Source of the DNA: an uncultured Oscillospiraceae bacterium
Lineage (GTDB): Bacteria > Bacillota > Clostridia > Oscillospirales > Oscillospiraceae
NCBI GenBank assembly: GCA_964493585.1
Contig: CAZBOR010000007.1
Coordinates: 1-29,618 of the forward strand
Direction: 5' to 3'
Length of the DNA: 29,618 nucleotides
A program made the translations under genes and the position numbers. Below, in pieces: positions 1,455-19,891 of this stretch (position 1 is its first letter; every line of letters begins with the position of its first letter). The notes beneath the pieces are model-generated. The model did no database searches. It saw nothing but the letters and a program-made list of their open reading frames with translations, and had not been told where the DNA came from.

Positions 1455-1467
1455 GAGGAGGAGAATC

Positions 1468-3252: not shown

Positions 3253-3255
3253 GCC

Positions 3256-3921: not shown

Positions 3922-3925
3922 TTCG

Positions 3926-3977
3926 GCGCCCGGAGCTGTCCCAAATCGGTCAGCTCCGGGCTTTTCACTGTTTTTTT
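3926..3977 (+). terminator. Rho-independent terminator ending the LRR / Zn-ribbon-SPFH / membrane-protein operon
   Basis: GC stem GCGCCCGGAGCTG (3926-3938) pairs with CAGCTCCGGG (3951-3960) across a 12-nt loop. It is followed by CTTTTCACTGTTTTTTT at 3961-3977. Confidence 0.8.
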
Positions 3978-4008
3978 ACGGGTTGTTCATACACTTTTGC
4001 GGATGTTG

Positions 4009-4017
4009 TGCTATAAT
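4009..4017 (+). promoter_or_regulatory. Extended -10 promoter element TGcTATAAT for the LtaS-family gene
   Basis: tgTGcTATAAT at 4007-4017 sits 36 nt upstream of ATG 4053. No good -35 is seen at 17-nt spacing. GGAG at about 4039-4042 serves as RBS. Confidence 0.55.
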
Positions 4018-4052
4018 GACCGGAGAGATTTTTACAATGGAGTGTTTCTTAG

Positions 4053-6191
4053 ATGCAGTATTCACGGCGGTCCGTTCGTATTGGAGCGGTCATATCCTTT
4101 GTGCTGTTCGCTCTGATCGCGGTCCAATACGAGAAATTCCTTGCTGTAGAGGACTGGGGCTGGCTCATGTACGCGGTGAGCCTTGGGGCGGCGCTGCTGG
4201 TCTGGCCGATGCTGGCGGTCCGGTGGACAAGTCCCAGATGGCTCCGCGGCATCTGCATGGTCTGGCTGATGACTGCCGCGCCCCTTATCATGATGATCGC
4301 CGTGGAGCGGCTCAACGGCAATTATATCACCGGCTTTCTGTCCGGGGACGAGGACGTGCTGGCCAACTATGTGGTGTATATGCTGCTGTACCTGCTGGTG
4401 TTTGGACTGAGCGGCAGCCTGCGTATCTCCATCCTGACGGTCAGCCCGGTGGTGCTGCTGTTCGGCATCGCCAATATGTACGTCAAGGAGTTCAAGGGCA
4501 GCCCTCTGGTACCCATGGACCTGGGCAGCATCGCCACGGCGGCCAACGTGGCGGCGGGCTATACCTACGAGATCGGCTATGAGATATTGTTCGCGGTGGC
4601 GCTGACGGCGGCGCTGATGGCGGCGGCCTCCCGGCTCCGCATGAGCCGATGGAAGCTGCCGGCAAAGCTCGTGGTCCGGGCCCTGTGCCTGCTGGTGGTG
4701 GGCGGCTTCGCCTATACCTTCTATTGCACGGACATTGTGGCGGACAACGGGCTCAAGCCGGACTTCTTTAATCAGACCCGCGGCTACAGGAACCACGGCG
4801 CGCTGCTGGAGTTCACGCTGAACACCAAGTACCTCTGGCTGGTGGAGCCCTCCGGCTATGACGCGGACGCGGTGGAGGACATCGTGGCGGAGCAGCTCGC
4901 CGACGGCACGGACAACATTCTGGTCACGGCGCTGGTGCGCCAGGGCATGGACCGGACGGAGGCGGAGGAGTATGTGAATTCCATTCTGACCGCCGGGGAG
5001 CAGGGCGTCACGCCCAATATCATCGTCATCATGAACGAGAGCTTTTCAGACCTGCGGGTGGTGGGGGATATTGAAACGAACATCCCCTATATGCCCTTTA
5101 TCGACAGCCTGGAGGAGAACACGATCCAGGGCAACGTCTATGTGTCCACCATCGGCACCGGCACCAGCAACACGGAGTTTGAGTTCCTGACGGGAAATAC
5201 CATGGCCTTTCTCCCGGCGGGGAGCAACGCCTATCAGCTCTATGTGAAGCAGCAGCAGCCCGGACTGGTGTCCACGCTGCTGCATCAGAACTACACCGCC
5301 GACGCCTTCCATCCCTACTTTGAGAGCAGCTGGAACCGGGTCAGCGTCTACGACCTGATGGGGTTCCGGGATTTCATCACCCTGGAGGACATCGTTGACG
5401 AGGACATCATCGAGCGGTACAAGTCCAGCGGCTACAGCTACAGCCTCTATAAGCGGCTGCTGAAGCAGCGCTATCCCGACGAGGACATCATTCTCCGGCG
5501 GTATGTCAGCGACGAGTATGATTTTCAGAAGGTCATTGAGATGTACGAGAACAAGGACGACCAGCCCTTCTTCCTGTTCAACGTCACCATGCAGTCCCAC
5601 TCCAGCTACGACCAGAAGTTCGACAACTTTGACCAGGAGGTGTATCTGACCTCCACGGAGAAGGAGTACCCCAAGACGGACCAGTACCTGTCCCTCATCA
5701 AGCGCACGGACGACGCCTTTCAGGAGCTGCTGGAATACTTCTCCGAGGTGGAGGAGCCGACCATCATCCTGATGTTTGGGGACCATCAGCCCTTTATCGA
5801 GGACGCCTTCTACAGCGAGGTCATGGGCCAGTCCGTCAGCCAGATGGACGATGAGACCCAGCAAAAGCGCTATATCACCCGGTTCATCCTGTGGGCCAAC
5901 TACGACATCCCGGAGGGCTGGATCGACGAGATCAGCATGAACTATCTGTCCACGCTGCTGCTGCAGGTGGCGGGGCTGGAAATGCCGGACTACAACGCCT
6001 ATCTGGCGGACCTCTATACCCGGATGCCGGTCATTACGGCCCTGGGCTGCCGGGACGCGGAGGGAAACTACTTCCAGGCGGACCAGGCCACAGACCTCCG
6101 GACCCTGGTGCAGAACTACCGCTATGTGGCCTATAACAATCTGGCCGACACGGAAAACCGCAAGGACAGATTGTTCTATTTGGGGGACTGA
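4053..6191 (+). CDS. LTA-synthase (LtaS) family membrane sulfatase-fold transferase
   Basis: An N-terminal polytopic membrane region of about 230 aa precedes an extracytoplasmic alkaline-phosphatase/sulfatase domain. It carries the LtaS-like nucleophile motif STIGTGTSNTEFEFLTGN and the metal-binding motif ILMFGDHQP. Stop TGA at 6189-6191. Confidence 0.7.
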   Translation: MQYSRRSVRIGAVISFVLFALIAVQYEKFLAVEDWGWLMYAVSLGAALLVWPMLAVRWTSPRWLRGICMVWLMTAAPLIMMIAVERLNGNYITGFLSGDEDVLANYVVYMLLYLLVFGLSGSLRISILTVSPVVLLFGIANMYVKEFKGSPLVPMDLGSIATAANVAAGYTYEIGYEILFAVALTAALMAAASRLRMSRWKLPAKLVVRALCLLVVGGFAYTFYCTDIVADNGLKPDFFNQTRGYRNHGALLEFTLNTKYLWLVEPSGYDADAVEDIVAEQLADGTDNILVTALVRQGMDRTEAEEYVNSILTAGEQGVTPNIIVIMNESFSDLRVVGDIETNIPYMPFIDSLEENTIQGNVYVSTIGTGTSNTEFEFLTGNTMAFLPAGSNAYQLYVKQQQPGLVSTLLHQNYTADAFHPYFESSWNRVSVYDLMGFRDFITLEDIVDEDIIERYKSSGYSYSLYKRLLKQRYPDEDIILRRYVSDEYDFQKVIEMYENKDDQPFFLFNVTMQSHSSYDQKFDNFDQEVYLTSTEKEYPKTDQYLSLIKRTDDAFQELLEYFSEVEEPTIILMFGDHQPFIEDAFYSEVMGQSVSQMDDETQQKRYITRFILWANYDIPEGWIDEISMNYLSTLLLQVAGLEMPDYNAYLADLYTRMPVITALGCRDAEGNYFQADQATDLRTLVQNYRYVAYNNLADTENRKDRLFYLGD

Positions 6192-6883
6192 AGCCTGTAG
6201 CTTAAAAGGAGCGCCTTGTCCTCCGGCGTGACCCGGCGGCTCTCCCGGCACTTCTGGATGGCCTTGTTCTGGACCCAGGGGGAGAGGCTCTGCCGCCGGA
6301 GCAGCGCCAGGGTCGGGTCCCGGAATTGTATAAAGCACTCGGACAGGGCCCAGGCCACGGCCATGTTGACATAATATCCGTCGTGGCGGATGCCGCTCAG
6401 GGTGTCCAGCACCCGATCAATGTAGTCCTCCGTGAGAAAATCGTCCATGAGCATGACCACGGCGAACCGCAGCGCAAATTCCTCCCGGCCCCGCAGATAG
6501 GGCTGAAGGAACGCCCAGGTTTCCGGCAGGTGCTTCTTTCCGTCCCGGATGCTGCCGGCAACGCAGTCGCAGATAGCCCAGTTGCGGATCTCCGGCACGA
6601 AGTCCCGGAGCAAATCCAGCCGCCGGGGATAGCCGCAGGGGGCGGTGGCCGTGACCAGGCCGCGGAGCATGGTGATCTCATATACCGGGCTGCCCCTGGC
6701 GGCGGATAAAAAGCTCTGCCAGTCACCCCGGAGCAGCTCTTTGGCGATGCGCCGAAGCTGGGGCATCCGCACCCCGTAGGAGGTGTTTTCCGCGCCGGGG
6801 ATCAGGCCCTCGTTGAAGCGCCGGTATTTCTCGTCGCCCAGGGCCTCCAGCCGCGCCAGCAGCGGCGCAAGTGGATCGGACAT
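6176..6883 (-). CDS. DNA alkylation repair protein (AlkD/AlkC-like HEAT-repeat DNA glycosylase family)
   Basis: ATG is the reverse complement of 6881-6883, giving MSDPLAPLLARLEALGDEKYRRFNEGLIPGAE... with GGAAG upstream. The track ORF extends to 7030 as an unsupported N-terminal extension. The sequence matches the DNA_alkylation family pattern. The 3' end overlaps the LtaS-like gene by 16 bp (6176-6191). Confidence 0.65.
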   Translation of the reverse strand: MSDPLAPLLARLEALGDEKYRRFNEGLIPGAENTSYGVRMPQLRRIAKELLRGDWQSFLSAARGSPVYEITMLRGLVTATAPCGYPRRLDLLRDFVPEIRNWAICDCVAGSIRDGKKHLPETWAFLQPYLRGREEFALRFAVVMLMDDFLTEDYIDRVLDTLSGIRHDGYYVNMAVAWALSECFIQFRDPTLALLRRQSLSPWVQNKAIQKCRESRRVTPEDKALLLSYRLQSPK

Positions 6884-6960
6884 TCCATCACTTCCTTTTC
6901 GGTTGTATGATACATGATACCATAAGCGGCGGCAAAAAACAATGTATGGAGGGTAGCGGC

Positions 6961-7440
6961 ATGAACAAGACCAACGCGATGCGGCTGCTGGACGCGGCCG
7001 GGATCGCCTACAGGGCGGTGGAGTATCCATACGACGAAAACGACCTGGGCGGAATGCACGTGGCGGCGGCCACCGGCATGGACCCGGACCGGATCTTCAA
7101 GACCCTGGTGGCCAGGGGAGAGCGGAAGGGGATACTGGTGTTCTGTATTCCCGTGAGCTGCACCCTGGATCTGAAAAAAGCGGCGATAGCCGCCGGGGAC
7201 AAGAAGGTGGAGATGACCCACATGAAGGAGCTTCTGGGGCTGACGGGCTATATCCGGGGCGGGTGCAGCCCCGTGGGCATGAAGAAGAAGTATCCCACCT
7301 TCATCGAGGAGACGGCGCTGCTCTACGATGAGATCGCCGTGTCCGGCGGAGCGCGGGGACTCCAGGTGCTGCTGGAGCCGGCGGCGCTGCTGGAGTACAC
7401 GGAGGCCGCAGCGGCGGACCTGACGGAGATCCCCCATTGA
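6961..7440 (+). CDS. ybaK: Cys-tRNA(Pro)/Cys-tRNA(Cys) deacylase YbaK
   Basis: RBS GGAGGG at 6947-6952 is followed by ATG 6961. The N-terminus MNKTNAMRLLDAAGIAYRAVEYPYDE is typical of the YbaK/EbsC family, and a GxxGY(I)RGGCSPVG motif is present. The track's 6871 start is an upstream extension overlapping the divergent AlkD start. Confidence 0.75.
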   Translation: MNKTNAMRLLDAAGIAYRAVEYPYDENDLGGMHVAAATGMDPDRIFKTLVARGERKGILVFCIPVSCTLDLKKAAIAAGDKKVEMTHMKELLGLTGYIRGGCSPVGMKKKYPTFIEETALLYDEIAVSGGARGLQVLLEPAALLEYTEAAAADLTEIPH

Positions 7441-7456
7441 TTCCGGCGGAGAAGTG

Positions 7457-7465
7457 TGCTAAAAT
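7457..7465 (+). promoter_or_regulatory. Extended -10 promoter element TGcTAAAAT for the TSCPD gene
   Basis: tgTGcTAAAAT at 7455-7465 lies within the last codons of ybaK, 26 nt upstream of the GTG start. Confidence 0.45.
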
Positions 7466-7490
7466 GAAGCAAAAAAAGGAGGTAAAAACC

Positions 7491-7739
7491 GTGGATTATG
7501 AATACAAGACCAAGGGCGTATGTTCCCGGAAGATCACATTTTCCGTGGAGGATGGCAAGGTGCGGAACGTGGCCTTTGAGGGCGGCTGCAACGGCAACGG
7601 CAAGGGCGTTTCCGCGCTGGTGGATGGAATGGACGTGGACGAGGCCATCTCCCGCATGAAGGGCATCACCTGCGGCATGAAGCCCACCTCATGCCCGGAC
7701 CAGCTTGCCCGGGCGCTGGAGCAGACAAAGGCGCAATAA
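7491..7739 (+). CDS. TSCPD-domain 4-Cys small protein (TIGR03905-like), 82 aa
   Basis: A canonical RBS AAAGGAGGT at 7476-7484 sits 6 nt before GTG 7491. The product MDYEYKTKGVCSRKITFSVEDGKVRNVAFEGGCNGNGKGVSALVDGM...GITCGMKPTSCPDQLARAL carries the family-defining motifs TSCPD and GGCNGN. The track's 7437 start has no RBS. Confidence 0.7.
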   Translation: MDYEYKTKGVCSRKITFSVEDGKVRNVAFEGGCNGNGKGVSALVDGMDVDEAISRMKGITCGMKPTSCPDQLARALEQTKAQ

Positions 7740-7890
7740 GCCTGCTTTTCCATAAAATACTTCGCTTTATGGGAAAACAGTATAAAACAAGGAAATATCG
7801 GGAATCCTCCCTATACCGGGCTTCTGTCAGACGCCGAAAAGCGTTTGACGGCGCGGAAGGCGCCTTGAAGCCTGTATAAGGAGGATTTTT

Positions 7891-8430
7891 ATGGAATTAA
7901 AGGGGTCAAAGACCGAGAGCAACCTGATGGCGGCCTACGCGGCGGAATCCGAGGCCAGGAACAACTACACCTTTTATGCGGGCGTCGCCCGGCGGGACGG
8001 CTACGAGCAGATCGCGGCCATCTTTGAGGAGACGGCCGCCAACGAGAAGGAGCACGCGGAGCTGTGGTACAAATACCTCAACGGCGGCGACTTCTCGGAC
8101 ACCGGGGCAAACCTGGCCGCGGCTGCCCAGGGGGAGCGGTACGAGCATACGGAGATGTATCCCCGGTTTGCCAGGGAGGCCAGGGAGGAGGGCTTCGAGG
8201 AGATCGCCCAGCGCATGGAGCGGGTGGCCCGGGTGGAGCGGGAGCACGAGGAGCGCTACCGGAAGCTGCTCCGGAATGTGGAAAATGGTCTGGTGTTCTC
8301 CAGGGATGGAGACATGGTCTGGCAGTGCCGCAACTGCGGCCACATCCACGTGGGAAAATCCGCGCCGTCGGTGTGTCCCGTGTGCAACCATACGCAGGCG
8401 TACTTCCAGCTCAAGCCGGAAAATATTTGA
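7891..8430 (+). CDS. rbr: Rubrerythrin: ferritin-like diiron domain plus C-terminal rubredoxin-like domain
   Basis: RBS AGGAGG at 7878-7883 is followed by ATG 7891. Diiron ligand motifs E..E.H appear twice ([10 protein letters not shown] / EKEHAELW and ERYEHTEMY / EREHEERY). The C-terminus reads CRNCGHIH...CPVCNH. Stop TGA at 8428-8430. Confidence 0.9.
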
Positions 8431-8433
8431 GGT

Positions 8434-9945
8434 TCATTCCCGCATATAGGCCCTTGCGTCCTTCATAAAGCTCAATATAATCAGGACCAGTACCGCCGCG
8501 ATGGGGAAGGCGGCGACGATGCTCACCGACTGGAGGGCGTTCATGGAGCTTTCCGCAAAGACCAGCGCCATGGGCAGCAGGATCAGCAGGATGCACCACA
8601 TGAGCTGTACCAGCTTGTGCGGCGCGGCCCCATCGCTCAGGGTGTGGTAGCTGTAGCAGGAGGCCGTCAGGGCGATGGAGTCAAAGCTGGTGGCGTAGAA
8701 GGCCACCATGGTCAGCAGCACCAGCGCCAGCACCAGCGGCGCGCAGGGCAGCGTGCTCAGAATGGACACGATGAGGCCGTACAGGTCCCCGGTCTCCTGA
8801 TAGATGCCGAGAAAGTCCGCCCCGCCGGTCATCTGCAGGCCCATGGAGTAATTTCCGAGGATGATGAAGCTCACCACGGTGGACCCGGCCCCGAAGCAGT
8901 AGCCGCCCAGGATGGTCTGCCGCACGGTGCGGCCCTGGGAGATGTTCCCAATGAAAAAGGGCGCGGCCACGCACCAGACCATCCAGTAGGCCCAGTAGTA
9001 GATGGTCCAGTTCTGGGGAAACGAGGTGGTGCGTAGGGGGTCTGTGTAGGTGGACAGCTCCGGGAAGTTTTGCAGCATCCGGCCCAGGGAGGAAAGCCCC
9101 GTTTCGAGGATATACCGGGTCTGCCCGCCCAGCAGCAGCACATAGGCCAGCAGACCGAAGAACAGATAGATGCAGACCTTGGCCAGAATACAGATGCCCC
9201 GGAACCCGTGGAGCAGGGAATAGGTATAGACCACACAGGTGACAGCCAGGATGGCGATCGTCACGGCGGTTCGGTTCAGCTCCGTGTGGAACAGCGCCTC
9301 CAGGAGGCTCGCCATCAGCGGCGTGGCCACGCTGAAGGTGGTGGCGGTGCCTGCCAGCAGCGCAAACACCGCCAGCAGGTCAATGATGCGGCCGGGGATG
9401 CCGTCGGTGTGACGGCCCAGGATGGGACGGCAGGCCTCGGAGTATTTCTGGCGGTCCCGTCCCCGGACGTGGAGCATGAATCCGAAGGCCACGGCCAGCG
9501 TCAGATAGAAGCTCCAGGGGATCAGGCTCCAGTGGAACAGCGGGAACACGCCCGCCCAATCCTGGATGCTGCCCAGCTCCGCCAGGTGCGGGTCGGAGGC
9601 GTACAGGATCCACTCGGACAGGGAGTAGAACAGGATGTCCGCCGCCAGACCGCAGGTGAACATCATGCAGCCCCAGGCGAAGAAGGAATACCTGGGCGTT
9701 TCGTTTTTGCCGCCCAGGACGATGGTTCCGTATTTGGACAGGGCGATATACAGGCTCAGCAGAAAAACGCCAAGGCCGATCACCAGATAGTACCCGCCGA
9801 AGGTATCTCCAAAGAAGAACCGTATCTGGCCCAGGACCTGGGTGCTGCGCTCCGGATAGAGGAGGAACAGCGCGCAGAGGGTCACGATCAGGCCCAGGGG
9901 TACCAGAGTGATAAGCCAGTCGATGCTTCGTGCCGGACGTTTCAT
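8434..9945 (-). CDS. BCCT-family (betaine/carnitine/choline) transporter, likely the choline importer of the lic-like operon
   Basis: ATG is the reverse complement of 9943-9945, preceded by AAGGAGG with 9-nt spacing. The first 7 codons in the track (TTG at 9966) are rejected. Twelve TM helices are predicted, and the BCCT signature WTIYYWAYWMVWCVAAPFFIGNISQGRTVRQ is present. The start overlaps the upstream gene's stop as ATGA. Confidence 0.8.
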   Translation of the reverse strand: MKRPARSIDWLITLVPLGLIVTLCALFLLYPERSTQVLGQIRFFFGDTFGGYYLVIGLGVFLLSLYIALSKYGTIVLGGKNETPRYSFFAWGCMMFTCGLAADILFYSLSEWILYASDPHLAELGSIQDWAGVFPLFHWSLIPWSFYLTLAVAFGFMLHVRGRDRQKYSEACRPILGRHTDGIPGRIIDLLAVFALLAGTATTFSVATPLMASLLEALFHTELNRTAVTIAILAVTCVVYTYSLLHGFRGICILAKVCIYLFFGLLAYVLLLGGQTRYILETGLSSLGRMLQNFPELSTYTDPLRTTSFPQNWTIYYWAYWMVWCVAAPFFIGNISQGRTVRQTILGGYCFGAGSTVVSFIILGNYSMGLQMTGGADFLGIYQETGDLYGLIVSILSTLPCAPLVLALVLLTMVAFYATSFDSIALTASCYSYHTLSDGAAPHKLVQLMWCILLILLPMALVFAESSMNALQSVSIVAAFPIAAVLVLIILSFMKDARAYMRE

Positions 9946-10670
9946 CGGTCCATGCCTCCTTCCCAATCGGAGCGGTAGCTGGGGTCCAGCTCCGCCAGCT
10001 CCCGGAGACTGTCGATCTCCCGGACGGCGTCTGGCGGCATCTCCCGTATGCCCAGGCTGTATTTTTCCGGGTGGCAGAACAGCGGCACGTCGTCCCAGTA
10101 GAGCTGACGGTTTTGCTTCTGCTCAAATTCCAGCTCCAGGTGGGCTCGGAGGCGGCGGCCGTCCTCCGCGTTCCAGCGGGAGATGCTGTAGAGGATATAG
10201 CCGCCGGAGCCGCCGCTGCGGCTGCACGAGGTGATGATCCCGTCCTCAACGGTCAGCAGCCACTCCCCGGTGCTGCCGTCGGTCCGGACGCAGTTGTAGC
10301 CGGAGCGCTCAAATTCCGGCCGGAGCACGGTGTCGTCATAGATGACCTGGTCCCCGTCGAGTATGATGGCGTCCTCCAGATGGGACCGGGCCACATACAG
10401 GGAGGAGATATTGCCGCAGGTCCGGTAGTAGGGATTTTCGATCAGATGGAGGCCGGGATAGGCCCGTTCCAGCGGGGCAAACAGCTCCTTGAGATACCCC
10501 ACCACAACATAGATTTCGTGGATGCCCTGGCGGCGCAGGCCGGTAATGGCCGTTTCGATCATGGGAACGCCGCCCACAGGCACCAGGGGCTTGGGAATGG
10601 TCAGGGTCAGAGGCCGCATACGGAGTCCCAGCCCGGCGGCCATGAGGATCGCACGCTTTACCCGGTACAT
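9942..10670 (-). CDS. LicC-like sugar-phosphate/choline-phosphate nucleotidyl (cytidylyl)transferase, 242 aa
   Basis: ATG is the reverse complement of 10668-10670 with RBS GGGAGGTGA. The N-terminus RAILMAAGLGLRMRPLTLTIPKPLVPV carries the G-x-G-x-R glycine-rich loop of the GlmU/RmlA/LicC nucleotidyltransferase fold. The motif NISSLY and a C-terminal LYWDD segment are present. It overlaps the upstream gene by 13 nt. Confidence 0.7.
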   Translation of the reverse strand: MYRVKRAILMAAGLGLRMRPLTLTIPKPLVPVGGVPMIETAITGLRRQGIHEIYVVVGYLKELFAPLERAYPGLHLIENPYYRTCGNISSLYVARSHLEDAIILDGDQVIYDDTVLRPEFERSGYNCVRTDGSTGEWLLTVEDGIITSCSRSGGSGGYILYSISRWNAEDGRRLRAHLELEFEQKQNRQLYWDDVPLFCHPEKYSLGIREMPPDAVREIDSLRELAELDPSYRSDWEGGMDR

Positions 10671-12442
10671 ATCTCGTCACCTCCCGTGGCGTCCAGCATT
10701 TCCCGGACCAGCTTGTAATAGTCCTTGGCATAGCGGTACTGCCGGAGGGAGTATGCGCCGAACTCCACGCCCAGGGCCCGCTTGTACTCGCACCAGTTGC
10801 TCCAGAGCAGTCCCGCGGCGGCGATGAAGCAGTAGATTTTGATGCGTGTCTCCTTTGCACAGCCATCGGGGAAATACAGCCCGATGAGCCGGTCCACCTG
10901 GTCCCGGCTGTACATGGAATAGATGCAGAACATGGCGATGTCCAGATGCGGGTCCTGCATTCCCGCGTACTCCCAGTCGATGAGGTGCAGCTCCTCCCGG
11001 CCATGGCTGTTTTGGACAAAGAGAAAGTTGTCCGGCACCGCGTCCACATGGGTCAGCACATACGGCTCCGCGTGGGCCTCCACATAGGGACGGAGGGACA
11101 GCACCCGGTCGCGGGTCTGCCGGTAGTCCCGGTAGACCGAGGGCGCGCCATTCCACAGGGATTCATAGAATACGATCTGCCCGAACAGGTCAAAGGTGTG
11201 GTCCACCGTCAGCTTCATCCGGTGAAAGTCCCGGAGCCGCTCCATACATCGGGCGACGTCGTTCCAGTCCCGGCTGTCGCATACCCTGGCGTGGTCCAGA
11301 AACCGCGTGAGCTTATACCCGGAATCCGGGTCCATATAGACCACCGGAGGACAAAGGCCCTTTCCGGCGATGGCGGCGTAGACTGCGGCCTCCTGGCGGC
11401 GGTCTATGAGGCGGTTGGAGCCCTCTCCGGGGATCCGCATGAGATAGCTGCATCCCCGGCAGGTAAAGCGGAAGGAGCGGTTGGTCATGCCCTTTTTCAT
11501 CACCGTGATGTCCGTAAGCTCCTCAGGCCGGACCGTCAGGGCCTGGCAGATCGCGGAGATCGCGTCGGACCGCAGCTGGTTGGATCGGCTGTCCAGGTCC
11601 CGGAGCTGCTCATAGGTGTTGATCTCCACGAAGTCGGAGGCGGAAACCAGCCGGGCGGCGGTCAGCATCCGGCCATTTTGATCGAGGGCCGCCTCCCAGA
11701 AGGCGTCGTTGTACCTGGGGTCCCGGCAGAGCTCCCGGATGCGCTGCCGGACCATCGGGGCGTCCTCCTCCGTCAGATAGCAGATGCCCAGCATGGCGTT
11801 GCCCACGGAGTTCCGGGGGACGGACACAAGCTCCCGTTTCCGATTGACATGGACGGAGCTGCCGGGGTCCATTCGGTCGCTGACCATGTACCAGGAGTAC
11901 AGCTCGTGGCGGCGATAGGGGTTGTCGGCGCACCAGATGTCACAGGGGATGATGTAGCTGTTGGAGAGGTGGTCCAGAGCCAGGGCCAGAGAGTGCAGAT
12001 TGTTTCCGGCGGCATAGTCGGCATTTACGATCAGCTCCACGCCGTATTCGTCGATCAGGTATTCGTAGTGCTCCTTCATAAAGCCCACGACCACATAGAT
12101 TTCGCGGATGCCCGCCGCGTGGAGCTGCCGTATGGTCCGCTCGATGAGCCGCTGGCCATGCACCTCCAGCAGGCCCTTGGGCGTCTCGGTGTTGATGGGG
12201 ACCATCCGCATCCCAAAGCCCGCCGCGAGGATCACGGCGCGTTTCGGGGATAGGGCCTGCGCGGCGCGGACAGCCTTCTCGGTGGGCCGGGCGGAATCGC
12301 CAAGATAGCCCGCCTCCGTCAGCGATTTGAGACAGCGGTTGACCATCCCCAGACTGTGACCGGAGGCTTTGGCCAGGGCGCGCTGGCTCGAAAAGGGCCG
12401 GTCCATCAGCGCGTTCAGAATATCACATTCCTGTATGTTCAT
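10658..12442 (-). CDS. Tri-domain fusion: N-terminal winged-HTH + LicC-like cytidylyltransferase + LicA-like choline/ethanolamine kinase (LicCA-like)
   Basis: ATG is the reverse complement of 12440-12442 with RBS AAGGTGA. Residues 1-50 (ILNALMDRPFSSQRALAKASGHSLGMVNRCLKSLTEAGYL) form a MarR/TrmB-like wHTH. Residues about 70-300 form the nucleotidyltransferase fold, with AVILAAGFGMRMVPINTETPKGLL and NNLHSLA. Residues about 300-594 form the kinase, with the Brenner motif LTHVDAVPDNFLF and the choline-kinase motif IDWEYAGMQDP. Confidence 0.75.
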   Translation of the reverse strand: MNIQECDILNALMDRPFSSQRALAKASGHSLGMVNRCLKSLTEAGYLGDSARPTEKAVRAAQALSPKRAVILAAGFGMRMVPINTETPKGLLEVHGQRLIERTIRQLHAAGIREIYVVVGFMKEHYEYLIDEYGVELIVNADYAAGNNLHSLALALDHLSNSYIIPCDIWCADNPYRRHELYSWYMVSDRMDPGSSVHVNRKRELVSVPRNSVGNAMLGICYLTEEDAPMVRQRIRELCRDPRYNDAFWEAALDQNGRMLTAARLVSASDFVEINTYEQLRDLDSRSNQLRSDAISAICQALTVRPEELTDITVMKKGMTNRSFRFTCRGCSYLMRIPGEGSNRLIDRRQEAAVYAAIAGKGLCPPVVYMDPDSGYKLTRFLDHARVCDSRDWNDVARCMERLRDFHRMKLTVDHTFDLFGQIVFYESLWNGAPSVYRDYRQTRDRVLSLRPYVEAHAEPYVLTHVDAVPDNFLFVQNSHGREELHLIDWEYAGMQDPHLDIAMFCIYSMYSRDQVDRLIGLYFPDGCAKETRIKIYCFIAAAGLLWSNWCEYKRALGVEFGAYSLRQYRYAKDYYKLVREMLDATGGDEICTG

Positions 12443-12471
12443 GTACTTATCACCTTCGCTTATTCGTGAAC

Positions 12472-12489
12472 AATGCGTTCAGACGCATT
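12472..12489 (-). promoter_or_regulatory. Perfect 7-4-7 inverted repeat AATGCGT-TCAG-ACGCATT, candidate operator at the lic-like operon transcription start
   Basis: The palindrome is seen directly in the sequence. It overlaps the -10 hexamer and the predicted +1 of the minus-strand promoter. Confidence 0.6.
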
Positions 12490-12515
12490 ATAGCATATCC
12501 GGGCCGGCGGGTCAA
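12487..12515 (-). promoter_or_regulatory. Sigma-A-type promoter of the licCA-licC-BCCT operon: TTGACC, 17 nt, TGcTATAAT
   Basis: Read on the minus strand, the -35 TTGACC is the reverse complement of 12510-12515. A 17-nt spacer follows. The extended -10 TGCTATAAT is the reverse complement of 12487-12495. The start codon is 38-45 nt downstream. Confidence 0.65.
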
Positions 12516-12623
12516 GACCGGGATCCGGGGAACGACAACGGGCCTGCTTGACACAATTCCGCGCTTCGGCGGGTATGGCGCTGCGGCAACGGAGACTTTT
12601 TTCAAAAAAGTTGTTTTTATGTC

Positions 12624-12652
12624 TTGGATTTCTTGAAATAATCTGATATAAT
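12624..12652 (+). promoter_or_regulatory. tig promoter: TTGGAT, 17 nt, TGaTATAAT
   Basis: -35 at 12624-12629, extended -10 TGATATAAT at 12644-12652. The 5' UTR of about 80 nt contains a GGC-UUCG-GCC tetraloop hairpin at 12706-12715. Confidence 0.5.
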
Positions 12653-12736
12653 CTATAAGCTGTCCCAGAGTGCTTTTACATCTGGAAACCTTATATAAAA
12701 AAGTGGCTTCGGCCGTGAATACAGGAGGAAAAACCA

Positions 12737-14041
12737 ATGAACGTGAAAAGCGTAGAAAAAAACGAAAACAGTACCGCCAAGCTTGTGCTGGAATTTGACA
12801 AGGCCACCTTCCAGACTGCCCTGGATAAGGCTTACCGCCGCGTCCGGAACGACATCTATATCCCCGGCTTCCGCAAGGGCAAGGCGCCCAGGAAGATCGT
12901 GGAGGGGATGTACGGCGCCCAGGTGTTCTATGAGGACGCCATCAACCTGCTGTTCCCCGACGCATGGGAAGAGGCTACCAAGGCGGAGAATCTGAATGTG
13001 GTGGGCAGTCCCAGTATTGCCGACCTGAACGTGGAGGACAGCGGCAATCTGGTGCTCACGGTGGAGGCCGGACTGTATCCTGAGGTCACACTGGGCCAGT
13101 ACAAGGGCATCGAGGCCGAGAAGTCCGCCGTGGAGGTCTCCGAGGAGGAGATTGATGCGGAGGTCCGGAAGCTGGCCGACCGCAATTCCACCGTGGAGAC
13201 GGTGGAGCGTCCTGCGGAAAACGGCGACACCGTGGTGATCGACTACGAGGGCTTTATGAACGACGTTCCCTTTGAGGGCGGCGCGGGCGAGGGCCACAGC
13301 CTGAAGCTCGGCTCCGGCACCTTTATCCCCGGCTTTGAGGACCAGCTGGTGGGCGCGTCCGCCGGCGAGGATCGGGAGGTCAACGTGACCTTCCCGGAGG
13401 ACTACGGCGCGGAGGACCTGGCCGGAAAGCCTGCGGTCTTTAAGGTCAAAGTCAAGGAGGTCAAGGCCACCAACACGCCGGAGCTGGACGATGAGTTCGC
13501 CAAGGACGTGTCCGAGACCGCCGATACCATGGAACAGCTCCGGGACGAGCTGAAGGAGAAGCTGCTGAAGGAAAAGACGGACAGCGCCGAGAGCGCCTTC
13601 AAGGACGCCGTGATGGAAAAGGCGCTGGAGAACATGACGGCTGTGATTCCGGACGCGATGGTGGAGGAGCAGCTTGACAGCACCATGCAGCAGCTCTCCA
13701 TGAGTATGCAGCAGAGCGGCTTCACCCTGGAGCAGTATGCACAGATGATGAGTACCACCGTGCAGGGCATCCGGGACAGCCAGCGGGAATCCGCAGTGAG
13801 CCAGATCAAAAACACGCTGCTGCTGGAGAAGGTGGCCGAGACGGAGAACATCGAGATCACCGACGAGCAGGTGGAGACGGCCTATCAGAAGATGGCGGAG
13901 CAATATGAGATGGAGCTGGAAAAGGTCAAGGAGTATGTGTCGGTGGAGGAGATCCAGCGGGATCAGAAGTTCCAGAAGGCCATGGAGCTGATCGTTGACA
14001 GCGCTGTGGAGAAGGCGCCGGAGGCTCCCGCCGCAGAATAA
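12737..14041 (+). CDS. tig: Trigger factor (ribosome-associated PPIase chaperone)
   Basis: RBS AGGAGG at 12723-12728 is followed by ATG 12737. The 434-aa product has an N-terminal ribosome-binding domain including the GFRKGKAP motif, an FKBP-like middle domain and a C-terminal helical arm. Confidence 0.95.
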   Translation: MNVKSVEKNENSTAKLVLEFDKATFQTALDKAYRRVRNDIYIPGFRKGKAPRKIVEGMYGAQVFYEDAINLLFPDAWEEATKAENLNVVGSPSIADLNVEDSGNLVLTVEAGLYPEVTLGQYKGIEAEKSAVEVSEEEIDAEVRKLADRNSTVETVERPAENGDTVVIDYEGFMNDVPFEGGAGEGHSLKLGSGTFIPGFEDQLVGASAGEDREVNVTFPEDYGAEDLAGKPAVFKVKVKEVKATNTPELDDEFAKDVSETADTMEQLRDELKEKLLKEKTDSAESAFKDAVMEKALENMTAVIPDAMVEEQLDSTMQQLSMSMQQSGFTLEQYAQMMSTTVQGIRDSQRESAVSQIKNTLLLEKVAETENIEITDEQVETAYQKMAEQYEMELEKVKEYVSVEEIQRDQKFQKAMELIVDSAVEKAPEAPAAE

Positions 14042-14719: not shown

Positions 14720-16000
14720 GTGGCAAGAAACAACAGTGACGAGAAGAATGTCCTCCGGTGTTCCTTCTGCGGGAAAAAGCAGGGGCAGGTCCAGCGGATC
14801 ATCGCCGGACCCGGCGTGTACATCTGTAACGAGTGTGTGAACCTGTGCAGCGATATTCTGGAGGATGAGATGTATGAGGACAGCTCCCAGGAGCTGCTGC
14901 CTGAGACCATCCCGTCGCCGAAAGCGATCAAGGAATACATGGACCAGTATATCGTGGGGCAGGAAAAGGCAAAGGTTTCCCTGTCCGTGGCGGTGTATAA
15001 TCACTATAAACGGTTATACTATGGTTCCGGCAGCGATGTGGAGCTGCAAAAGAGCAATATCCTGCTGATCGGTCCCACCGGCAGCGGCAAGACCCTGTTT
15101 GCTCAGACCCTGGCGAAAATCCTGGACGTTCCCTTTGCCATCGCCGACGCCACCACGCTGACGGAGGCGGGCTATGTGGGCGAGGATGTGGAAAACATTT
15201 TGCTCCGGCTCATTCAGGCGGCGGATTTTGACGTGGAACGGGCGGAAAAGGGCATCATCTATGTGGATGAGATCGACAAAATCGCCCGGAAGAGCGAAAA
15301 CACCTCCATTACGCGGGACGTCAGCGGCGAAGGGGTCCAGCAGGCGCTGCTGAAAATCGTGGAGGGAACGGTGGCCAACGTGCCGCCTCAGGGCGGCCGG
15401 AAGCACCCGCAGCAGGAGTTTATCCCGATCGACACCAGCAATATCCTCTTTATCTGCGGCGGGGCCTTTGACGGTCTGGATAAGATCATCGAACGCCGCA
15501 CCTCCAGCACCGGCATGGGCTTCGGCCAGGAGCTGGGAGCGCGGGGAGAGCGGGACGTGGGGGAGCTGTTTGCCCAGGTGCAGCCCCATGATATTCTGAA
15601 GTTTGGCATCATACCGGAGCTGGTGGGCCGCCTGCCGGTCATCACCAGCCTCAGCGACCTCACCAAAGAGGATATGGTGCGGATCCTGACAGAACCGAAG
15701 AATGCTCTGGTCAAGCAATACCAGAAGCTGCTGGAATTTGACGGCGTGGAGCTGGCCTTTGAGGACAAGGCTCTGGAGGCCATCGCCCAGGAGGCGCTGG
15801 ACCGCAAGGTGGGCGCACGGGGTCTGCGCTCCGTGATGGAGGGGGTCATGACGGATGTGATGTTTGAAATCCCATCGGACCTGTCCATCCAGAGCGTCAC
15901 CATCACCGAGGAAAACATCACCGGCCACACGCCGCCGGAGCTTGTGCGGGACCAGACCCGGCCCCGGCAGCCTGTCCATAAGGTCGGAAAGATCAGCTAA
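14720..16000 (+). CDS. clpX: ATP-dependent Clp protease ATP-binding subunit ClpX
   Basis: GTG start at 14720 with GGAAGGGAG upstream. N-terminal C4 zinc-binding domain (CSFCGK...CNEC), Walker A GPTGSGKT and a sensor/IGF-loop region are present. Confidence 0.93.
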
Positions 16001-16083
16001 CTGTACTGGGGCTTGCCCGGACCCGTTTGGGCCTGGCCGGCCCCAGCGTGTCTATATTGCCGTTCCAGAAAGGAGCGTTTTCT

Positions 16084-18492
16084 ATGAATGATATTTTGGA
16101 GGCTGTGACTCCGGTCATGGCGCTGCGGGGACTTTCTGTGTTTCCCAAGATGATCTACTCCTTTGACGTGGGCCGGGAGAAGTCCATCCGCGCCCTGGAG
16201 GAGGCCATGAACGGCGACCAGAACCTGACGCTGTTGATGCAGAAGGACGTGGCCGTGGACGAGCCGGGTCCCGACGATCTGTACGATGTGGGCGTATACG
16301 TCCATGTGCGCCAGGTGCTGAAGCTGCCCGGCGAGGTCATCCGGATCCTGGTGGAGGGCATCTGCCGGGTGCAGATCATGGAGTTTACCCAGGAGAGCCC
16401 CTATCTGGAGGCGGATTGCATGGGGCTGACCGATTCGCCGTATCGCGGCTCCGCCGCCAAGACAGAGGCGCTGCTGCGAGTGGCCTATCAGATGTACGGG
16501 ACCTACAGCGACCTCCTTCCCAAGGGGTCTGCGGAGAATCTGCTGCGGCTCCTGACCAGCGACGAACCGGGCTTCGTGGCGGATTTCCTGGCCCAGAACT
16601 GCGGCTTCAAATATACCGACAAGCAGACCGCCCTGGAAACGCTGGCTACGGGGAAGCGGCTGGAATTTGTGCTCAAGGCGCTGAACTCCGAGATCGAGAT
16701 CATGAAGATCGAGAACGACATCTCGGAGAAGGTCCAGGTGGCGGTCAACAAGAGCCAGCGGGATTTTTACCTCCGGGAGCAGCTCAGGGTCATTCACTCG
16801 GAGCTGGGGGAAGAGGACGAGGATCAGGAGTTTGAGGACTACGAGCAGCGGATCAAGGCCCTGAAGCTGGACGGCGCCATCGAGGAGAAGCTCCTCAAGG
16901 ACGTGGCGCGGCTCAGCAAGCATCCCGTTGGCTCCGCCGAGGGGGCGCTGCTGCGGGACTATCTGGACATCGTTCTGGAGCTGCCCTGGAACATCGAGAC
17001 CAAGGAGACCGTCAACATCGAGGCGGCGCAAAAGACGCTGGACCAGGACCATTACGGCCTGGAGCAGGTGAAGAAGCGCGTGCTGGAGCTGCTGGCGGTG
17101 CGGAAGCTGTCCCCCAATATCTCCGGGCAGATCATCTGCCTGGTGGGACCGCCCGGCACCGGCAAGACCTCCATCGCCACCTCCATCGCCAAGTGTCTCA
17201 ACCGGAATATGGCCCGCATTTCCCTGGGCGGCATCCATGACGAGGCGGAGATACGGGGCCATCGCAAGACCTATATCGGGGCCATGCCGGGACGCATCAT
17301 CACCGGCGTCAAGCAGGCCGGGTCCAGGAATCCGCTGCTGCTCCTCGACGAGATCGACAAGCTGGGGACCGACTACCGGGGCGACCCGTCCTCCGCGCTG
17401 CTGGAGGTGCTGGACGCGGAGCAGAACAAGACCTTCCGGGACAACTTTGTGGAGGTCCCCTTTGATCTCAGCGGCGTGCTGTTCATCACCACCGCCAACA
17501 CCACCTCCACCATTCCGGCGGCCCTGCTGGACCGCATGGAGGTCATCGAGCTGTCCAGCTACACCGACGAGGAGAAGCTGATGATCGCCAAGCACCATCT
17601 GCTGCCGAAGGAGCTGGGGCGTCTGGGCCTCAAGCGGAGCCAGATCACCGTCAATGACAATGCGTGGCGGGAGATCATCGACGGCTATACCAGAGAATCC
17701 GGCGTCCGCAACCTCCAGCGGGAGATCGCGGCCCTGTGCCGGAAGGCGGCGGTGAAATTTGCCACGGATGAAAACCTCAAGCGGGTCAGCATCACCGCCA
17801 ACCGGGTGGAGGAGTACCTTGGGGTGCGGAAATATCTGCCCGATGTGATGCCCAGCGTCAATCAGGTGGGCCTGGTCACGGGTCTGGCCTGGACCGCCGT
17901 GGGCGGCGTGACCCTGGAGGTCGAGGTCAACGTCATGGACGGCTCCGGAAAGCTGGAAATGACCGGCTCCCTGGGCGATGTGATGAAGGAATCCGTCCAC
18001 GCGGCCATGAGCTATATCCGTTCCCGTGCGGACCATTACGGGATTCCCGCGGATTTCTACAAGACCAAGGACATCCATGTACACTTCCCGGAGGGTGCGG
18101 TGCCAAAGGACGGGCCGTCCGCAGGCATCACCATCTGCACGGCCATGGTGTCGGCGCTGACGGGGGCGCCCGTGCGGCGGGACATCGCCATGACCGGGGA
18201 GATCTCCATTCGCGGCCGGGTCATGGCCATCGGCGGCCTCAAGGAAAAGACCATGGCGGCCCTGCGCCATGGGGTCAAGACCGTCATTATCCCGGCGGAG
18301 AACGAGAAGGATCTGGAGGAGATCGACCAGACCGTCCGCAGCCGCCTGAACTTCATCACGGTCAGGACCATGGACGCGGTGCTCACTGCGGCGCTGGATA
18401 TGACCCACTGTGCGGCGGAGGAGCCGGAAAAGCCCAAGCTGGAGATGCCGGTGCCGGAGCGCCGGGAGAGCCGACGGACCCTGAGACAGTGA
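16084..18492 (+). CDS. lon: ATP-dependent Lon protease (LonA)
   Basis: RBS AAAGGAG at 16069-16075 is followed by ATG 16084; the track's 16027 start is an unsupported extension. Lon N-domain, Walker A GPPGTGKTS, and a proteolytic Ser-Lys dyad context (DGPSAGIT...K) are present. The product is 802 aa. Confidence 0.93.
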   Translation: MNDILEAVTPVMALRGLSVFPKMIYSFDVGREKSIRALEEAMNGDQNLTLLMQKDVAVDEPGPDDLYDVGVYVHVRQVLKLPGEVIRILVEGICRVQIMEFTQESPYLEADCMGLTDSPYRGSAAKTEALLRVAYQMYGTYSDLLPKGSAENLLRLLTSDEPGFVADFLAQNCGFKYTDKQTALETLATGKRLEFVLKALNSEIEIMKIENDISEKVQVAVNKSQRDFYLREQLRVIHSELGEEDEDQEFEDYEQRIKALKLDGAIEEKLLKDVARLSKHPVGSAEGALLRDYLDIVLELPWNIETKETVNIEAAQKTLDQDHYGLEQVKKRVLELLAVRKLSPNISGQIICLVGPPGTGKTSIATSIAKCLNRNMARISLGGIHDEAEIRGHRKTYIGAMPGRIITGVKQAGSRNPLLLLDEIDKLGTDYRGDPSSALLEVLDAEQNKTFRDNFVEVPFDLSGVLFITTANTTSTIPAALLDRMEVIELSSYTDEEKLMIAKHHLLPKELGRLGLKRSQITVNDNAWREIIDGYTRESGVRNLQREIAALCRKAAVKFATDENLKRVSITANRVEEYLGVRKYLPDVMPSVNQVGLVTGLAWTAVGGVTLEVEVNVMDGSGKLEMTGSLGDVMKESVHAAMSYIRSRADHYGIPADFYKTKDIHVHFPEGAVPKDGPSAGITICTAMVSALTGAPVRRDIAMTGEISIRGRVMAIGGLKEKTMAALRHGVKTVIIPAENEKDLEEIDQTVRSRLNFITVRTMDAVLTAALDMTHCAAEEPEKPKLEMPVPERRESRRTLRQ

Positions 18493-18499
18493 GGCGGCC

Positions 18500-19135: not shown

Positions 19136-19165
19136 TTGCTATTTTCCGGGATACATGGTATACTA
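19136..19165 (+). promoter_or_regulatory. Promoter for the M50 protease / scpAB block: TTGCTA, 18 nt, TGgTATACT
   Basis: -35-like TTGCTA at 19136-19141 and extended -10 TGGTATACT at 19157-19165. Confidence 0.45.
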
Positions 19166-19189
19166 GACTATCGGCGGGAGGTGCTGCCA

Positions 19190-19882: not shown

Positions 19883-19891
19883 GGAGCCAGC

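Follow-up and report, generated by a model that had tools for sequence, protein, structure and literature searches.

A lic-type operon predicted to import and activate choline, with a DNA-binding domain fused to its kinase and a conserved pair of leader boxes, in an uncultured Oscillospiraceae bacterium

Contig CAZBOR010000007.1 of an uncultured Oscillospiraceae bacterium (assembly GCA_964493585.1) carries, on its minus strand, three overlapping genes whose products would import choline, phosphorylate it, and activate it with cytidine triphosphate (CTP). The window, that is, the whole stretch of DNA that was analysed, is the entire contig of 29,618 nucleotides, from a fragmented assembly. Judged from sequence comparison, the operon probably supplies cytidine diphosphate (CDP)-choline for the placement of phosphocholine on a surface glycopolymer. 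In the mechanism proposed, one promoter would drive the three translationally coupled genes. Choline would enter through the BCCT-family transporter (gene 3), be converted to phosphocholine by the C-terminal LicA-type kinase domain of gene 1, and then to CDP-choline by a LicC-type cytidylyltransferase, namely the product of gene 2 and, probably, the kinase-fused domain as well. A LicD-family phosphotransferase, presumably encoded elsewhere in the genome, would move phosphocholine onto the polymer (an exopolysaccharide, a capsule, a teichoic-acid-like polymer, and a glycolipid are the candidates), and choline-binding-repeat proteins could then dock on the decorated polymer. In addition, the winged helix of gene 1 may bind two GTWCAYGAA boxes between the -10 box and the start codon, so that the operon would repress itself.

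Table 1. Features of the cassette and its leader (positions in the window)
Feature	Coordinates	Strand	Remarks
Gene 1	10658..12442	minus	594 residues; fusion of winged-helix DNA-binding, LicC-like nucleotidyltransferase, and LicA-like choline kinase domains
Gene 2	9942..10670	minus	242 residues; free LicC-type cytidylyltransferase
Gene 3	8434..9945	minus	503 residues from ATG; BCCT-family transporter, predicted choline importer
Winged helix-turn-helix (HTH_24, MarR-like)	12302..12442	minus	Gene 1 residues 1-47; Pfam E 5.7e-11
LicC-like nucleotidyltransferase, remodelled pocket	11573..12241	minus	Gene 1 residues 68-290
Choline kinase domain	10727..11542	minus	Gene 1 residues 301-572; LicA-aligned
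Sigma-70-type promoter	12487..12515	minus	TTGACC, 17-nucleotide spacer, TG-extended TATAAT; consensus match only
Inverted repeat AATGCGTctgaACGCATT	12472..12489	minus	Perfect 7+7; overlaps the end of the -10 box
Box O1 GTTCACGAAT	12462..12471	minus	Family motif GTTCA(C/T)(G/A)AAA, 27-28 nucleotides 5' of the ATG
Shine-Dalgarno AAGGTGA of gene 1	12450..12456	minus	Same region purine-rich in the 79-locus profile
Box O2 GTACATGAAC	12437..12446	minus	Copy of the GT(A/T)CATGAAC motif, across the start codon

The arrangement of the genes was read directly from the sequence. Gene 2 starts with its ATG at 10670-10668, ahead of the TAA of gene 1 (10660-10658), so that the two overlap by 13 nucleotides, and the TGA of gene 2 (9944-9942) overlaps the ATG of gene 3 (9945-9943) as ATGA. 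The original prediction, a first reading of this DNA made without database searches, had described three tightly coupled minus-strand genes with these same coordinates and overlaps. A longer form of gene 3, from a TTG at 9966, appears in the list of open reading frames (ORFs); an AGGAGG stands 9 nucleotides 5' of the ATG at 9945, and GGAGG-type ribosome-binding sites are found at this distance from the start codons of both genes 2 and 3. The three can be taken as real genes rather than chance ORFs because relatives of 58-70% identity occur, in the same gene order, in at least 566 species genomes. That import, phosphorylation, and CTP activation follow a lic-type scheme, as had been proposed, agrees with the finding that LicC (1JYK) and LicA (4R77) are the best solved relatives of the enzymatic domains. 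The BCCT transporter, the LicA-like kinase, and two LicC-like domains had likewise been recognised correctly, but the winged helix at the N-terminus of gene 1 had been overlooked.

The C-terminal part of gene 1 matches the Pfam family Choline_kinase/APH (residues 313-523, E 1.2e-13), and its best solved relative is LicA (4R77, E 3.6e-25). When an AlphaFold model of gene 1 was used in a Foldseek search, LicA came first, with a template modelling (TM) score of 0.84-0.85, followed by other choline/ethanolamine kinases; LicC was the first nucleotidyltransferase match, and NahK-type sugar kinases ranked far below the choline-type kinases (E 1.7e-8 versus 2.7e-17; TM 0.54 versus 0.84). This model has a mean predicted local distance difference test (pLDDT) score of 72.6; it is confident in the kinase, moderate in the DNA-binding domain, and poor in the substrate lobe of the nucleotidyltransferase (pLDDT <50 at residues 169-218 and 262-290).

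The roles of individual kinase residues were taken from the published description of LicA (PMC4364537) and mapped by alignment to 4R77. LicA T29, which makes the hydroxyl contact, corresponds to T320 of gene 1, and K45 to R336, a position that we infer to be equivalent to Arg146 of human ChoK, which contacts the alpha-phosphate (PMC4364537). The catalytic residues D176 and N181 correspond to D467 and N472, and V178, D194, and E196 to V469, D489, and E491; the aromatic box of Y197, W251, W254, and Y268 is present as Y492, W547, W550, and Y564. The sole pocket difference is at LicA E213, where gene 1 has Y508. All of these gene 1 residues other than Y508 are invariant both in a set of 9 and in a set of 28 homologues, and Y508 is itself invariant in the 28. 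The Brenner-type motif (PMC4364537) is present as T-H-V-D467-A-V-P-D-N472, which aligns with C-H-I-D176-L-V-P-E-N181 of LicA, and H465, D467, A468, V469, P470, D471, and N472 are invariant in both sets. The choline kinase motif (I/L/V)xxID(F/W/Y)E(Y/F) is likewise found, as L487-I-D489-W-E491-Y492, while a later part of the motif deviates (LicA N201, W205, and E213 are Q496, L500, and Y508). Choline is the substrate predicted by this comparison. The original prediction had named an AmgK-like kinase as the outcome that would speak against it; the LicA catalytic residues and all four aromatic residues of the choline pocket are kept instead.

Both nucleotidyltransferases of the cassette are related to LicC. 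Pfam NTP_transf_3 matches gene 1 from residue 69 (E 4.3e-17) and also gene 2 (E 9.2e-14; NTP_transferase matches as well), and LicC of Streptococcus pneumoniae (1JYK) is the best and the sole full-length solved match of the fused domain (E 1.8e-25) and of the free protein (E 1.4e-32). The next solved relative of both is the phosphonate enzyme PntC (6PD1). MurU structures align just to the first ~55-60 residues of each, and the NCBIfam MurU models give 51-55 bits, against a cut-off of 250; the NCBIfam equivalog cut-offs were reached by none of the three cassette proteins. A MurU-like function, offered earlier as an alternative for the free copy, is disfavoured by these results, since the MurU match ends after the first ~55 residues whereas LicC matches gene 2 over 227 residues and at 10 of 11 tabulated pocket and catalytic positions (Y85 is Cys). 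The two domains had been called paralogous; BLASTP aligns them to one another only in the N-terminal half, which binds the nucleotide (41% identity over 116 residues), and leaves the substrate lobes unaligned.

The substrate pockets set the two domains apart. For this comparison the 1JYK sequence served as the reference to which 83 fused domains, 59 proteins of the free gene 2 type, and 13 proteins of a variant type described below were aligned. The LicC numbering was validated at D105, R129, D192, and E216 against a published account (PMC6697681), from which the roles of these four residues were also taken; the choice of the other positions compared was our own, in part from the alignment. 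The gene 2 proteins keep LicC R18, K28, Y92, D105, D107, W136, W165, Y190, W191, D192, E216, and D218 in essentially all 59 members (those from D105 onward in 59 of 59, with Y190F in 3), and the equivalents in the window are R17, K27, Y92, D105, D107, W137, W166, Y191, W192, D193, E218, and D220. In the fused domains the catalytic residues R79, K89, D168, and E273 are kept in 81-83 of the 83 members, and the pocket is remodelled in a constant way: D105 is replaced by P166, W136 by V197, W165 by L223, Y190 by F248, D192 by E250, and D218 by N275, the same in 76-83 of 83. W249 stands at the position of LicC W191, and the fused domains have conserved aromatic residues of their own (W170, Y182, W184, and Y185 in 81-83 members). 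The nucleotidyltransferase signature GXG(T/S)R-X(4-8)-PK (PMC6697681) reads G13-L-G15-L-R17...P-K27 in gene 2 and G75-F-G77-M-R79...P-K89 in gene 1, its Arg and Lys being kept in all members of both sets. The metal-binding/catalytic acids of LicC (D107, E216, and D218) are D107, E218, and D220 in gene 2 and D168, E273, and N275 in gene 1. By its pocket, gene 2 certainly looks like a canonical LicC that is competent to make CDP-choline. The fused domain appears to be a catalytically plausible, pocket-remodelled relative of LicC, which probably forms CDP-choline as well.

Relatives of gene 1 were found in at least 566 species-representative genomes (in one scan, of a set that the window's own genome lies outside), mostly of gut Clostridia. 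Carriers include Faecalibacterium prausnitzii, Gemmiger, Blautia, Lachnospira eligens, Fusicatenibacter, Dorea, Erysipelotrichales, Streptococcus porci, and many metagenome-assembled genomes of Oscillospiraceae and Lachnospiraceae. A separate protein homology search with gene 1 gave at least 8000 candidates; among the matches listed, the top ones have 589-594 residues, 66-70% identity, and the same Pfam architecture. Eighty species loci (L007-L086) were examined with 10 kb on either side, and these, together with the window and two further contexts, make up a set of 83. As a rule, gene 1, gene 2, and the BCCT gene follow one another in that order in the 80 loci; the order is found in more than 59 species and is kept across Oscillospiraceae, Faecalibacterium, Lachnospiraceae, Erysipelotrichales, and one Streptococcus. 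It is the second-gene slot that varies. Across the 83 loci, this slot holds the gene 2 type in 59, a different nucleotidyltransferase of ~290 residues in 13 (L026, L030, L033, L036, L040, L059, L062, L064, L065, L067, L072, L073, and L084), and no second nucleotidyltransferase in 7. The ~290-residue type has S105, W136, L190, and E192 at LicC-equivalent positions, and three of its loci (L036, L040, and L064) contain a second, stand-alone choline-type kinase. Where there is no second cytidylyltransferase (L022, L028, L042, L043, L046, L051, and L078), gene 1 is followed directly by the BCCT gene, which argues that the fused domain can suffice; one of these loci, L046, has LicD immediately upstream.

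Natural fusions of gene 1 with gene 2 also occur (P0003, P0051, and P0249), as do further fusions of 889-956 residues that contain two nucleotidyltransferases. P0279 is another natural fusion of the kinase with two nucleotidyltransferases, P0341 has the order nucleotidyltransferase-nucleotidyltransferase-kinase, and the order helix-turn-helix, nucleotidyltransferase, kinase, nucleotidyltransferase was also seen. The existence of such fusions in several orders indicates that the combination of one choline kinase with two nucleotidyltransferases recurs. In an exhaustive representative search, the fused domain was almost always attached to a choline kinase, usually after a DNA-binding domain of ~64 residues. 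In some cases the DNA-binding domain is absent, as from P0309, whose pocket (P-x-D-I-W and W-E-E) is nevertheless that of the family. The LicC-LicA fusion P0382, by comparison, is canonical, its pocket reading D-G-D and Y-W-D.

Gene 3 matches Pfam BCCT (PF02028) over profile positions 1-483 of 485 (399.9 bits, E 1.7e-119) and gives 397.5 bits with TIGR00842, just under the cut-off of 407.55; no substrate-specific equivalog was reached. The transporter of the window is thus of the BCCT family and not an EamA-fold LicB. In four related loci that have no BCCT gene (L040, L064, L065, and L073), an EamA (LicB-family) transporter occupies the transporter slot, either directly after the ~290-residue nucleotidyltransferase or after an added stand-alone kinase. 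A gene of the MTTB family (trimethylamine-methyltransferase-like) lies between gene 2 and the BCCT gene in two loci (L012:12495-13925 and L061:12488-13936); this insertion hints that in some species the importer is shared with quaternary-amine demethylation.

A profile search of the major ORFs of the window gave no phosphocholine transferase, whether LicD, a CDP-alcohol phosphatidyltransferase, or any other, as the original prediction had noted. The weight that it placed on this absence is not sustained, however. Because the window is a whole short contig, the absence is uninformative about the genome, and LicD is the commonest immediate neighbour of the cassette in its relatives; the "missing" transferase is an artefact of assembly and contig size. 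LicD lies within 400 nucleotides of the cassette in 12 of the 80 species loci and within 10 kb in 23. Relatives were seen in which it stands immediately 5' of gene 1 and closes a cluster that encodes a priming transferase (Bac_transf), glycosyltransferases, and a Wzx-type flippase (Polysacc_synt). The 70 immediate upstream genes include LicD (11), TagF-like glycerophosphotransferases (4), GT1 (4), and genes with choline-binding repeats (3), in this order of frequency, and the commonest of the 64 immediate downstream genes are those for choline-binding-repeat proteins (6) and EamA (4). A LicD encoded elsewhere is the predicted consumer of CDP-choline in the genome of the window. As a separate observation, the LicD gene beside the cassette of F. 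prausnitzii (L008:9070-9927) has as its best NCBIfam match Mf1, the diacylglycerol cholinephosphotransferase of Mycoplasma fermentans (85 bits, cut-off 225); because of this match, the acceptor of the F. prausnitzii LicD may be a glycolipid. The possible relation of the operon to the LtaS-family gene of the window, also raised earlier, is not supported by the relatives, as the 10 kb on either side of the cassette are free of LtaS-like genes in all 80 loci. In the window, two unrelated genes separate the LtaS-like gene from the cassette, and it scores 41.5 bits against an LtaS cut-off of 970.

The N-terminal domain of gene 1 is a winged helix-turn-helix by Pfam (Table 1). The NCBIfam model MarR_EPS (TIGR04176) gives it 31.7 bits, under the cut-off, and no solved relative was found at E up to 1. 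Within a SGHSLGxVN stretch (S27/G28-G32, V34, and N35), several residues are invariant or nearly so in alignments of homologues.

A possible target for this domain lies in the leader of gene 1. The promoter of the window has 11 of the 12 consensus positions and is the sole promoter-like site within 8200-12800. The inverted repeat at the end of its -10 box is confined to the window's own promoter and is without conservation in the relatives' loci. By contrast with the flanks, which are otherwise unalignable, two boxes emerged when the regions upstream of gene 1 were aligned across species. The first, O1, keeps a constant distance to the ATG in ~68 of the 79 species loci. When O1 was written as a regular expression, 102 matches were found in 2.95 Mb, of which 68 are at the leader of gene 1 and the other 34 compare with a chance expectation of ~32; within the window there is 1 match (0.18 expected). 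For the second, O2, GTTCATGAAC is a perfect palindrome, and the non-coding positions -4 to -1 of the box read GTAC in 30 loci, GTTC in 16, and GTAT in 6 (52 of 79). The spacing from O1 to O2 is 25 nucleotides in the window and 24-25 across the family, and a third box is found 24 bp further upstream in L014, L015, and L035. A -10-like hexamer can be recognised in 31 of 74 loci, with O1 mostly starting 6-8 nucleotides after it, at about the start of transcription. (It should be noted that this spacing is soft evidence, as such hexamers arise readily in AT-rich DNA.) The box was not found upstream of two nucleotidyltransferase-kinase fusions from outside the family, one without a DNA-binding domain (L080) and one with an uncharacterised N-terminal extension (L031). 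The conserved pair of GTWCAYGAA boxes is new here and is most simply read as a candidate operator for gene 1's own winged-helix domain. An operator pair for a conserved winged helix encoded by the same gene implies autorepression; that gene 1 autoregulates the operon is a tentative prediction, held at close to, or a little under, an even prospect.

The pathway is of a known kind. The lic1 locus consists of licA, licB, and licC, with licD elsewhere or adjacent. As in lic1 of S. pneumoniae and Haemophilus influenzae, the cassette combines choline import, a choline kinase, and a CTP:phosphocholine cytidylyltransferase that would feed LicD; LicA and LicC are its closest solved relatives, with the LicC pocket in gene 2 and the LicA pocket in the kinase. 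Unlike lic1, it has its kinase fused to a divergent LicC-like domain and a DNA-binding domain, it has two cytidylyltransferases, and no licD is linked to it in the window; in addition, the importer of lic1 is a LicB of the DMT/EamA family rather than a BCCT protein. The departures from the biochemically characterised lic systems are therefore the BCCT transporter in place of LicB, the DNA-binding domain on LicC-LicA, the extra LicC, and the leader element. Another relative in design is the LicCA-type fusion (the Treponema denticola type; P0382), which also has a nucleotidyltransferase followed by a choline kinase on one polypeptide. In Treponema the product of LicCA goes to phosphatidylcholine. 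P0382 differs from gene 1 in its canonical LicC pocket (D-G-D, W136, and Y-W-D), its LicA Glu213, and the lack of a DNA-binding domain.

The modulation of host immunity by phosphocholine on the surface glycans of bacteria is well known, and the cassette is the probable common architecture of the phosphocholine pathway in gut Clostridia. A genetic study of the gut clostridium C. immunis describes a licABC operon of three genes that is required for phosphocholine on the exopolysaccharide and that is sufficient for it when moved into C. symbiosum (bioRxiv 10.1101/2024.06.12.598703). According to its authors, licABC is widespread in gut commensals and probably spread horizontally, and the gut clostridial operon is tied to protection from obesity in mice (bioRxiv 10.1101/2024.06.12.598703). 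Like the cassette, it is a three-gene operon of kinase, transporter, and licC in a gut clostridium, while neither a DNA-binding domain nor a second cytidylyltransferase domain is mentioned in that paper. The primers used for C. immunis gave no match, at up to 3 mismatches, in 86 loci, nor in metagenomes of the Joint Genome Institute (JGI). When the licA primers were translated, one peptide matched residues 366-372 of gene 1 with a score of 31, where the null reached at most 29, and another, at 104-108, was not significant alone; the two matches are 269 codons apart, in agreement with the 800-bp homology arm of the paper. This is a weak hint that the licA of C. immunis shares the fusion architecture of gene 1. 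An operon that is probably equivalent has already been characterised genetically, and where the window alone is concerned the outcome is largely deflationary. The fused DNA-binding domain and the leader boxes provide a testable handle on how commensals regulate the decoration, and the presence of two cytidylyltransferases poses a defined biochemical question.

Several observations weigh against the reading of the operon as a supply of CDP-choline for a surface glycopolymer, or against parts of it. LicA Glu213, which contacts the choline ammonium, is replaced by Tyr508. The T/S of the nucleotidyltransferase signature is replaced as well, by Met in gene 1 and by Leu in gene 2 of the window (most relatives of gene 2 have Asn, Lys, or Ser there). 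The choline specificity of the transporter is drawn from its context, and its closest solved relative is the dimethylsulfoniopropionate (DMSP) transporter DddT, at 295 bits, with CaiT at 173 and the choline transporter BetT at 169. LicD is absent from the window, and also from within 10 kb in 57 of the 80 related loci. The leader boxes could be an RNA feature, as GUUCA can pair with UGAAC at the start codon. In this last case, a search for covariation of the GUUCA and UGAAC arms gave nothing for or against, as both sides are near-invariant and shuffles score equal to the observed; the minimum-free-energy folds of the leaders are weak (-3 to -7.5 kcal/mol), and Rfam gave nothing in the window. 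A hairpin would leave unaccounted for both the third boxes and the GT(A/T)C that is conserved at the non-coding positions -4 to -1, and a DNA site is therefore the likelier explanation of the boxes. Finally, the recurrent pairing of two cytidylyltransferases, in operons and in fusions, is left without an explanation by the pathway itself. A second substrate, a pair of catalyst and sensor, and simple redundancy are the candidate reasons.

The first of these reasons would mean that two head groups are activated, one cytidylyltransferase serving phosphocholine and the other a different phospho- or phosphono-compound, such as phosphoethanolamine, 2-aminoethylphosphonate, or glycerol phosphate, with which a further decoration would be made, as the original prediction had suggested. 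The changes D105P, W136V, W165L, and D192E, present in 76-83 of 83 fused domains, are in keeping with a different substrate, and PntC, the phosphonate enzyme, likewise has Glu where LicC has D192 (PMC6697681). The variable second-gene slot, with its ~290-residue nucleotidyltransferase in 13 of 83 loci and sometimes a second stand-alone kinase, and the TagF-like glycerophosphotransferases that are occasional neighbours point the same way. On the other hand, the cassette of the window has a single kinase; the 25 Pfam families most frequent in the immediate neighbours include no phosphonate or ethanolamine genes; 7 of 83 loci make do with gene 1 and BCCT; and the nearly constant attachment of the fused domain to a choline kinase fits a channelling of phosphocholine, as in P0382. 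A second head group is thus a serious but rather unlikely explanation.

It is also possible, though doubtful, that the two form a catalytic and regulatory pair, in which gene 2 is the working LicC and the fused domain mainly senses CTP or CDP-choline and adjusts the kinase and the DNA-binding domain accordingly. Analogues of such a pair are NadR, GMPPA/GMPPB, and the large and small subunits of ADP-glucose pyrophosphorylase (AGPase). GMPPA/GMPPB and the AGPase large subunit, which are regulatory paralogues within the nucleotidyltransferase superfamily, are among the solved relatives found. Gene 2 alone has kept the choline pocket of LicC, the fused domain is placed between the DNA-binding domain and the kinase, and the conserved leader boxes would be a plausible target for the former. 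Against such a pair speak the retention of R79, K89, D168, and E273 in 81-83 of 83 fused domains and the loci (7 of 83) from which gene 2 is missing, and the model of the fused substrate lobe, being unreliable (pLDDT <50), is structurally uninformative on the point. The enterobacterial NadR is built of a DNA-binding domain, a nicotinamide mononucleotide (NMN) adenylyltransferase, and a ribosylnicotinamide kinase. As an analogy to gene 1, it too joins a DNA-binding domain, a nucleotidyltransferase, and a kinase in one protein and has a dedicated importer, although both of its enzymatic folds are unrelated to those of gene 1 and there is no sequence similarity. This layout suggests that gene 1 may also repress the genes of its own pathway. 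By the same analogy, one could imagine gene 1 as a trifunctional NadR-like enzyme-repressor that senses CDP-choline or CTP, with gene 2 as the main catalyst, but this is speculative and on balance improbable. If true, at least 566 bacterial species, mostly of the gut, would meter their phosphocholine decoration with a module that is self-contained and moves horizontally, namely the cassette; its winged helix would bind paired boxes spanning the start of transcription and the start codon, and the fused sensor domain would set both DNA binding and the output of the kinase.

Two further readings concern the pathway as a whole. CDP-choline could be consumed by a CDP-choline:diacylglycerol cholinephosphotransferase to give phosphatidylcholine, as in T. 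denticola, instead of decorating a glycan. The order of nucleotidyltransferase and kinase is that of LicCA-type fusions such as P0382, and the window is without an acceptor enzyme; yet the recurrent neighbours of the cassette are LicD, glycosyltransferases, flippases, and choline-binding-repeat proteins, no CDP-alcohol phosphatidyltransferase is among the 25 commonest neighbour families, and the one functional study of a gut clostridial lic operon found phosphocholine on exopolysaccharide (bioRxiv 10.1101/2024.06.12.598703). This route is very improbable. The recycling of amino sugars (AmgK/MurU-like or NahK-like), with the BCCT protein as an unrelated importer of osmoprotectants, has in its favour the weak NCBIfam MurU scores and the match of MurU structures to the first ~55-60 residues of the nucleotidyltransferases. 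It is effectively refuted by the quaternary-ammonium aromatic box that the kinase shares with LicA, by the ranking of LicA and the choline/ethanolamine kinases far above NahK in the structural search, by the full-length match of LicC to both nucleotidyltransferases, and by the translational coupling of all three genes in an order kept in more than 59 species. An AmgK/MurU-type pair for the recycling of N-acetylmuramic acid (MurNAc) was likewise rejected as a candidate, given a kinase pocket of the choline type and MurU scores of 51-55 bits against 250.

The remainder of the window, which has a G+C content of ~61%, consists largely of other matters. The gene 3 end is 3 nucleotides from that of the convergent rubrerythrin gene (8430-8434), and no terminator-like hairpin was found when this gap was scanned. 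Rubrerythrin is one of the housekeeping genes of the window, together with tig, clpP, clpX, lon, engB, scpAB, ytfJ, dacB, cmk, and ispH-S1, while the left side of the window encodes a BspA-type repeat protein, an SPFH protein, the LtaS-like sulfatase-fold protein, and a DNA-alkylation-repair protein. Long minus-strand ORFs of 416-834 residues lie antisense to several genes, at 15997-18501 (lon), 19163-21295 (scpA region), 1681-3747 (SPFH), and 12653-13903 (tig). The first, second, and fourth of these have no Pfam match (1681-3747 was outside the scan), and the long antisense ORFs are of the usual spurious kind seen in G+C-rich DNA. No member of the protein collection searched is more than 85% identical to the Lon protease of the window, and the single named match among those listed, at 77%, comes from an Oscillospiraceae bacterium. 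In the closest relatives by Lon (82-85% identity; L087-L090), the gene order from tig to ispH is the same as in the window. Where the window has the lic cassette, rubrerythrin, and the LtaS-like gene (~1-12700 compared), these relatives have, 5' of tig, a sigma factor, lepB, ylqF, rnhB, thrC, and a metallophosphatase. The cassette is thus located at a break in synteny, which fits an accessory element.

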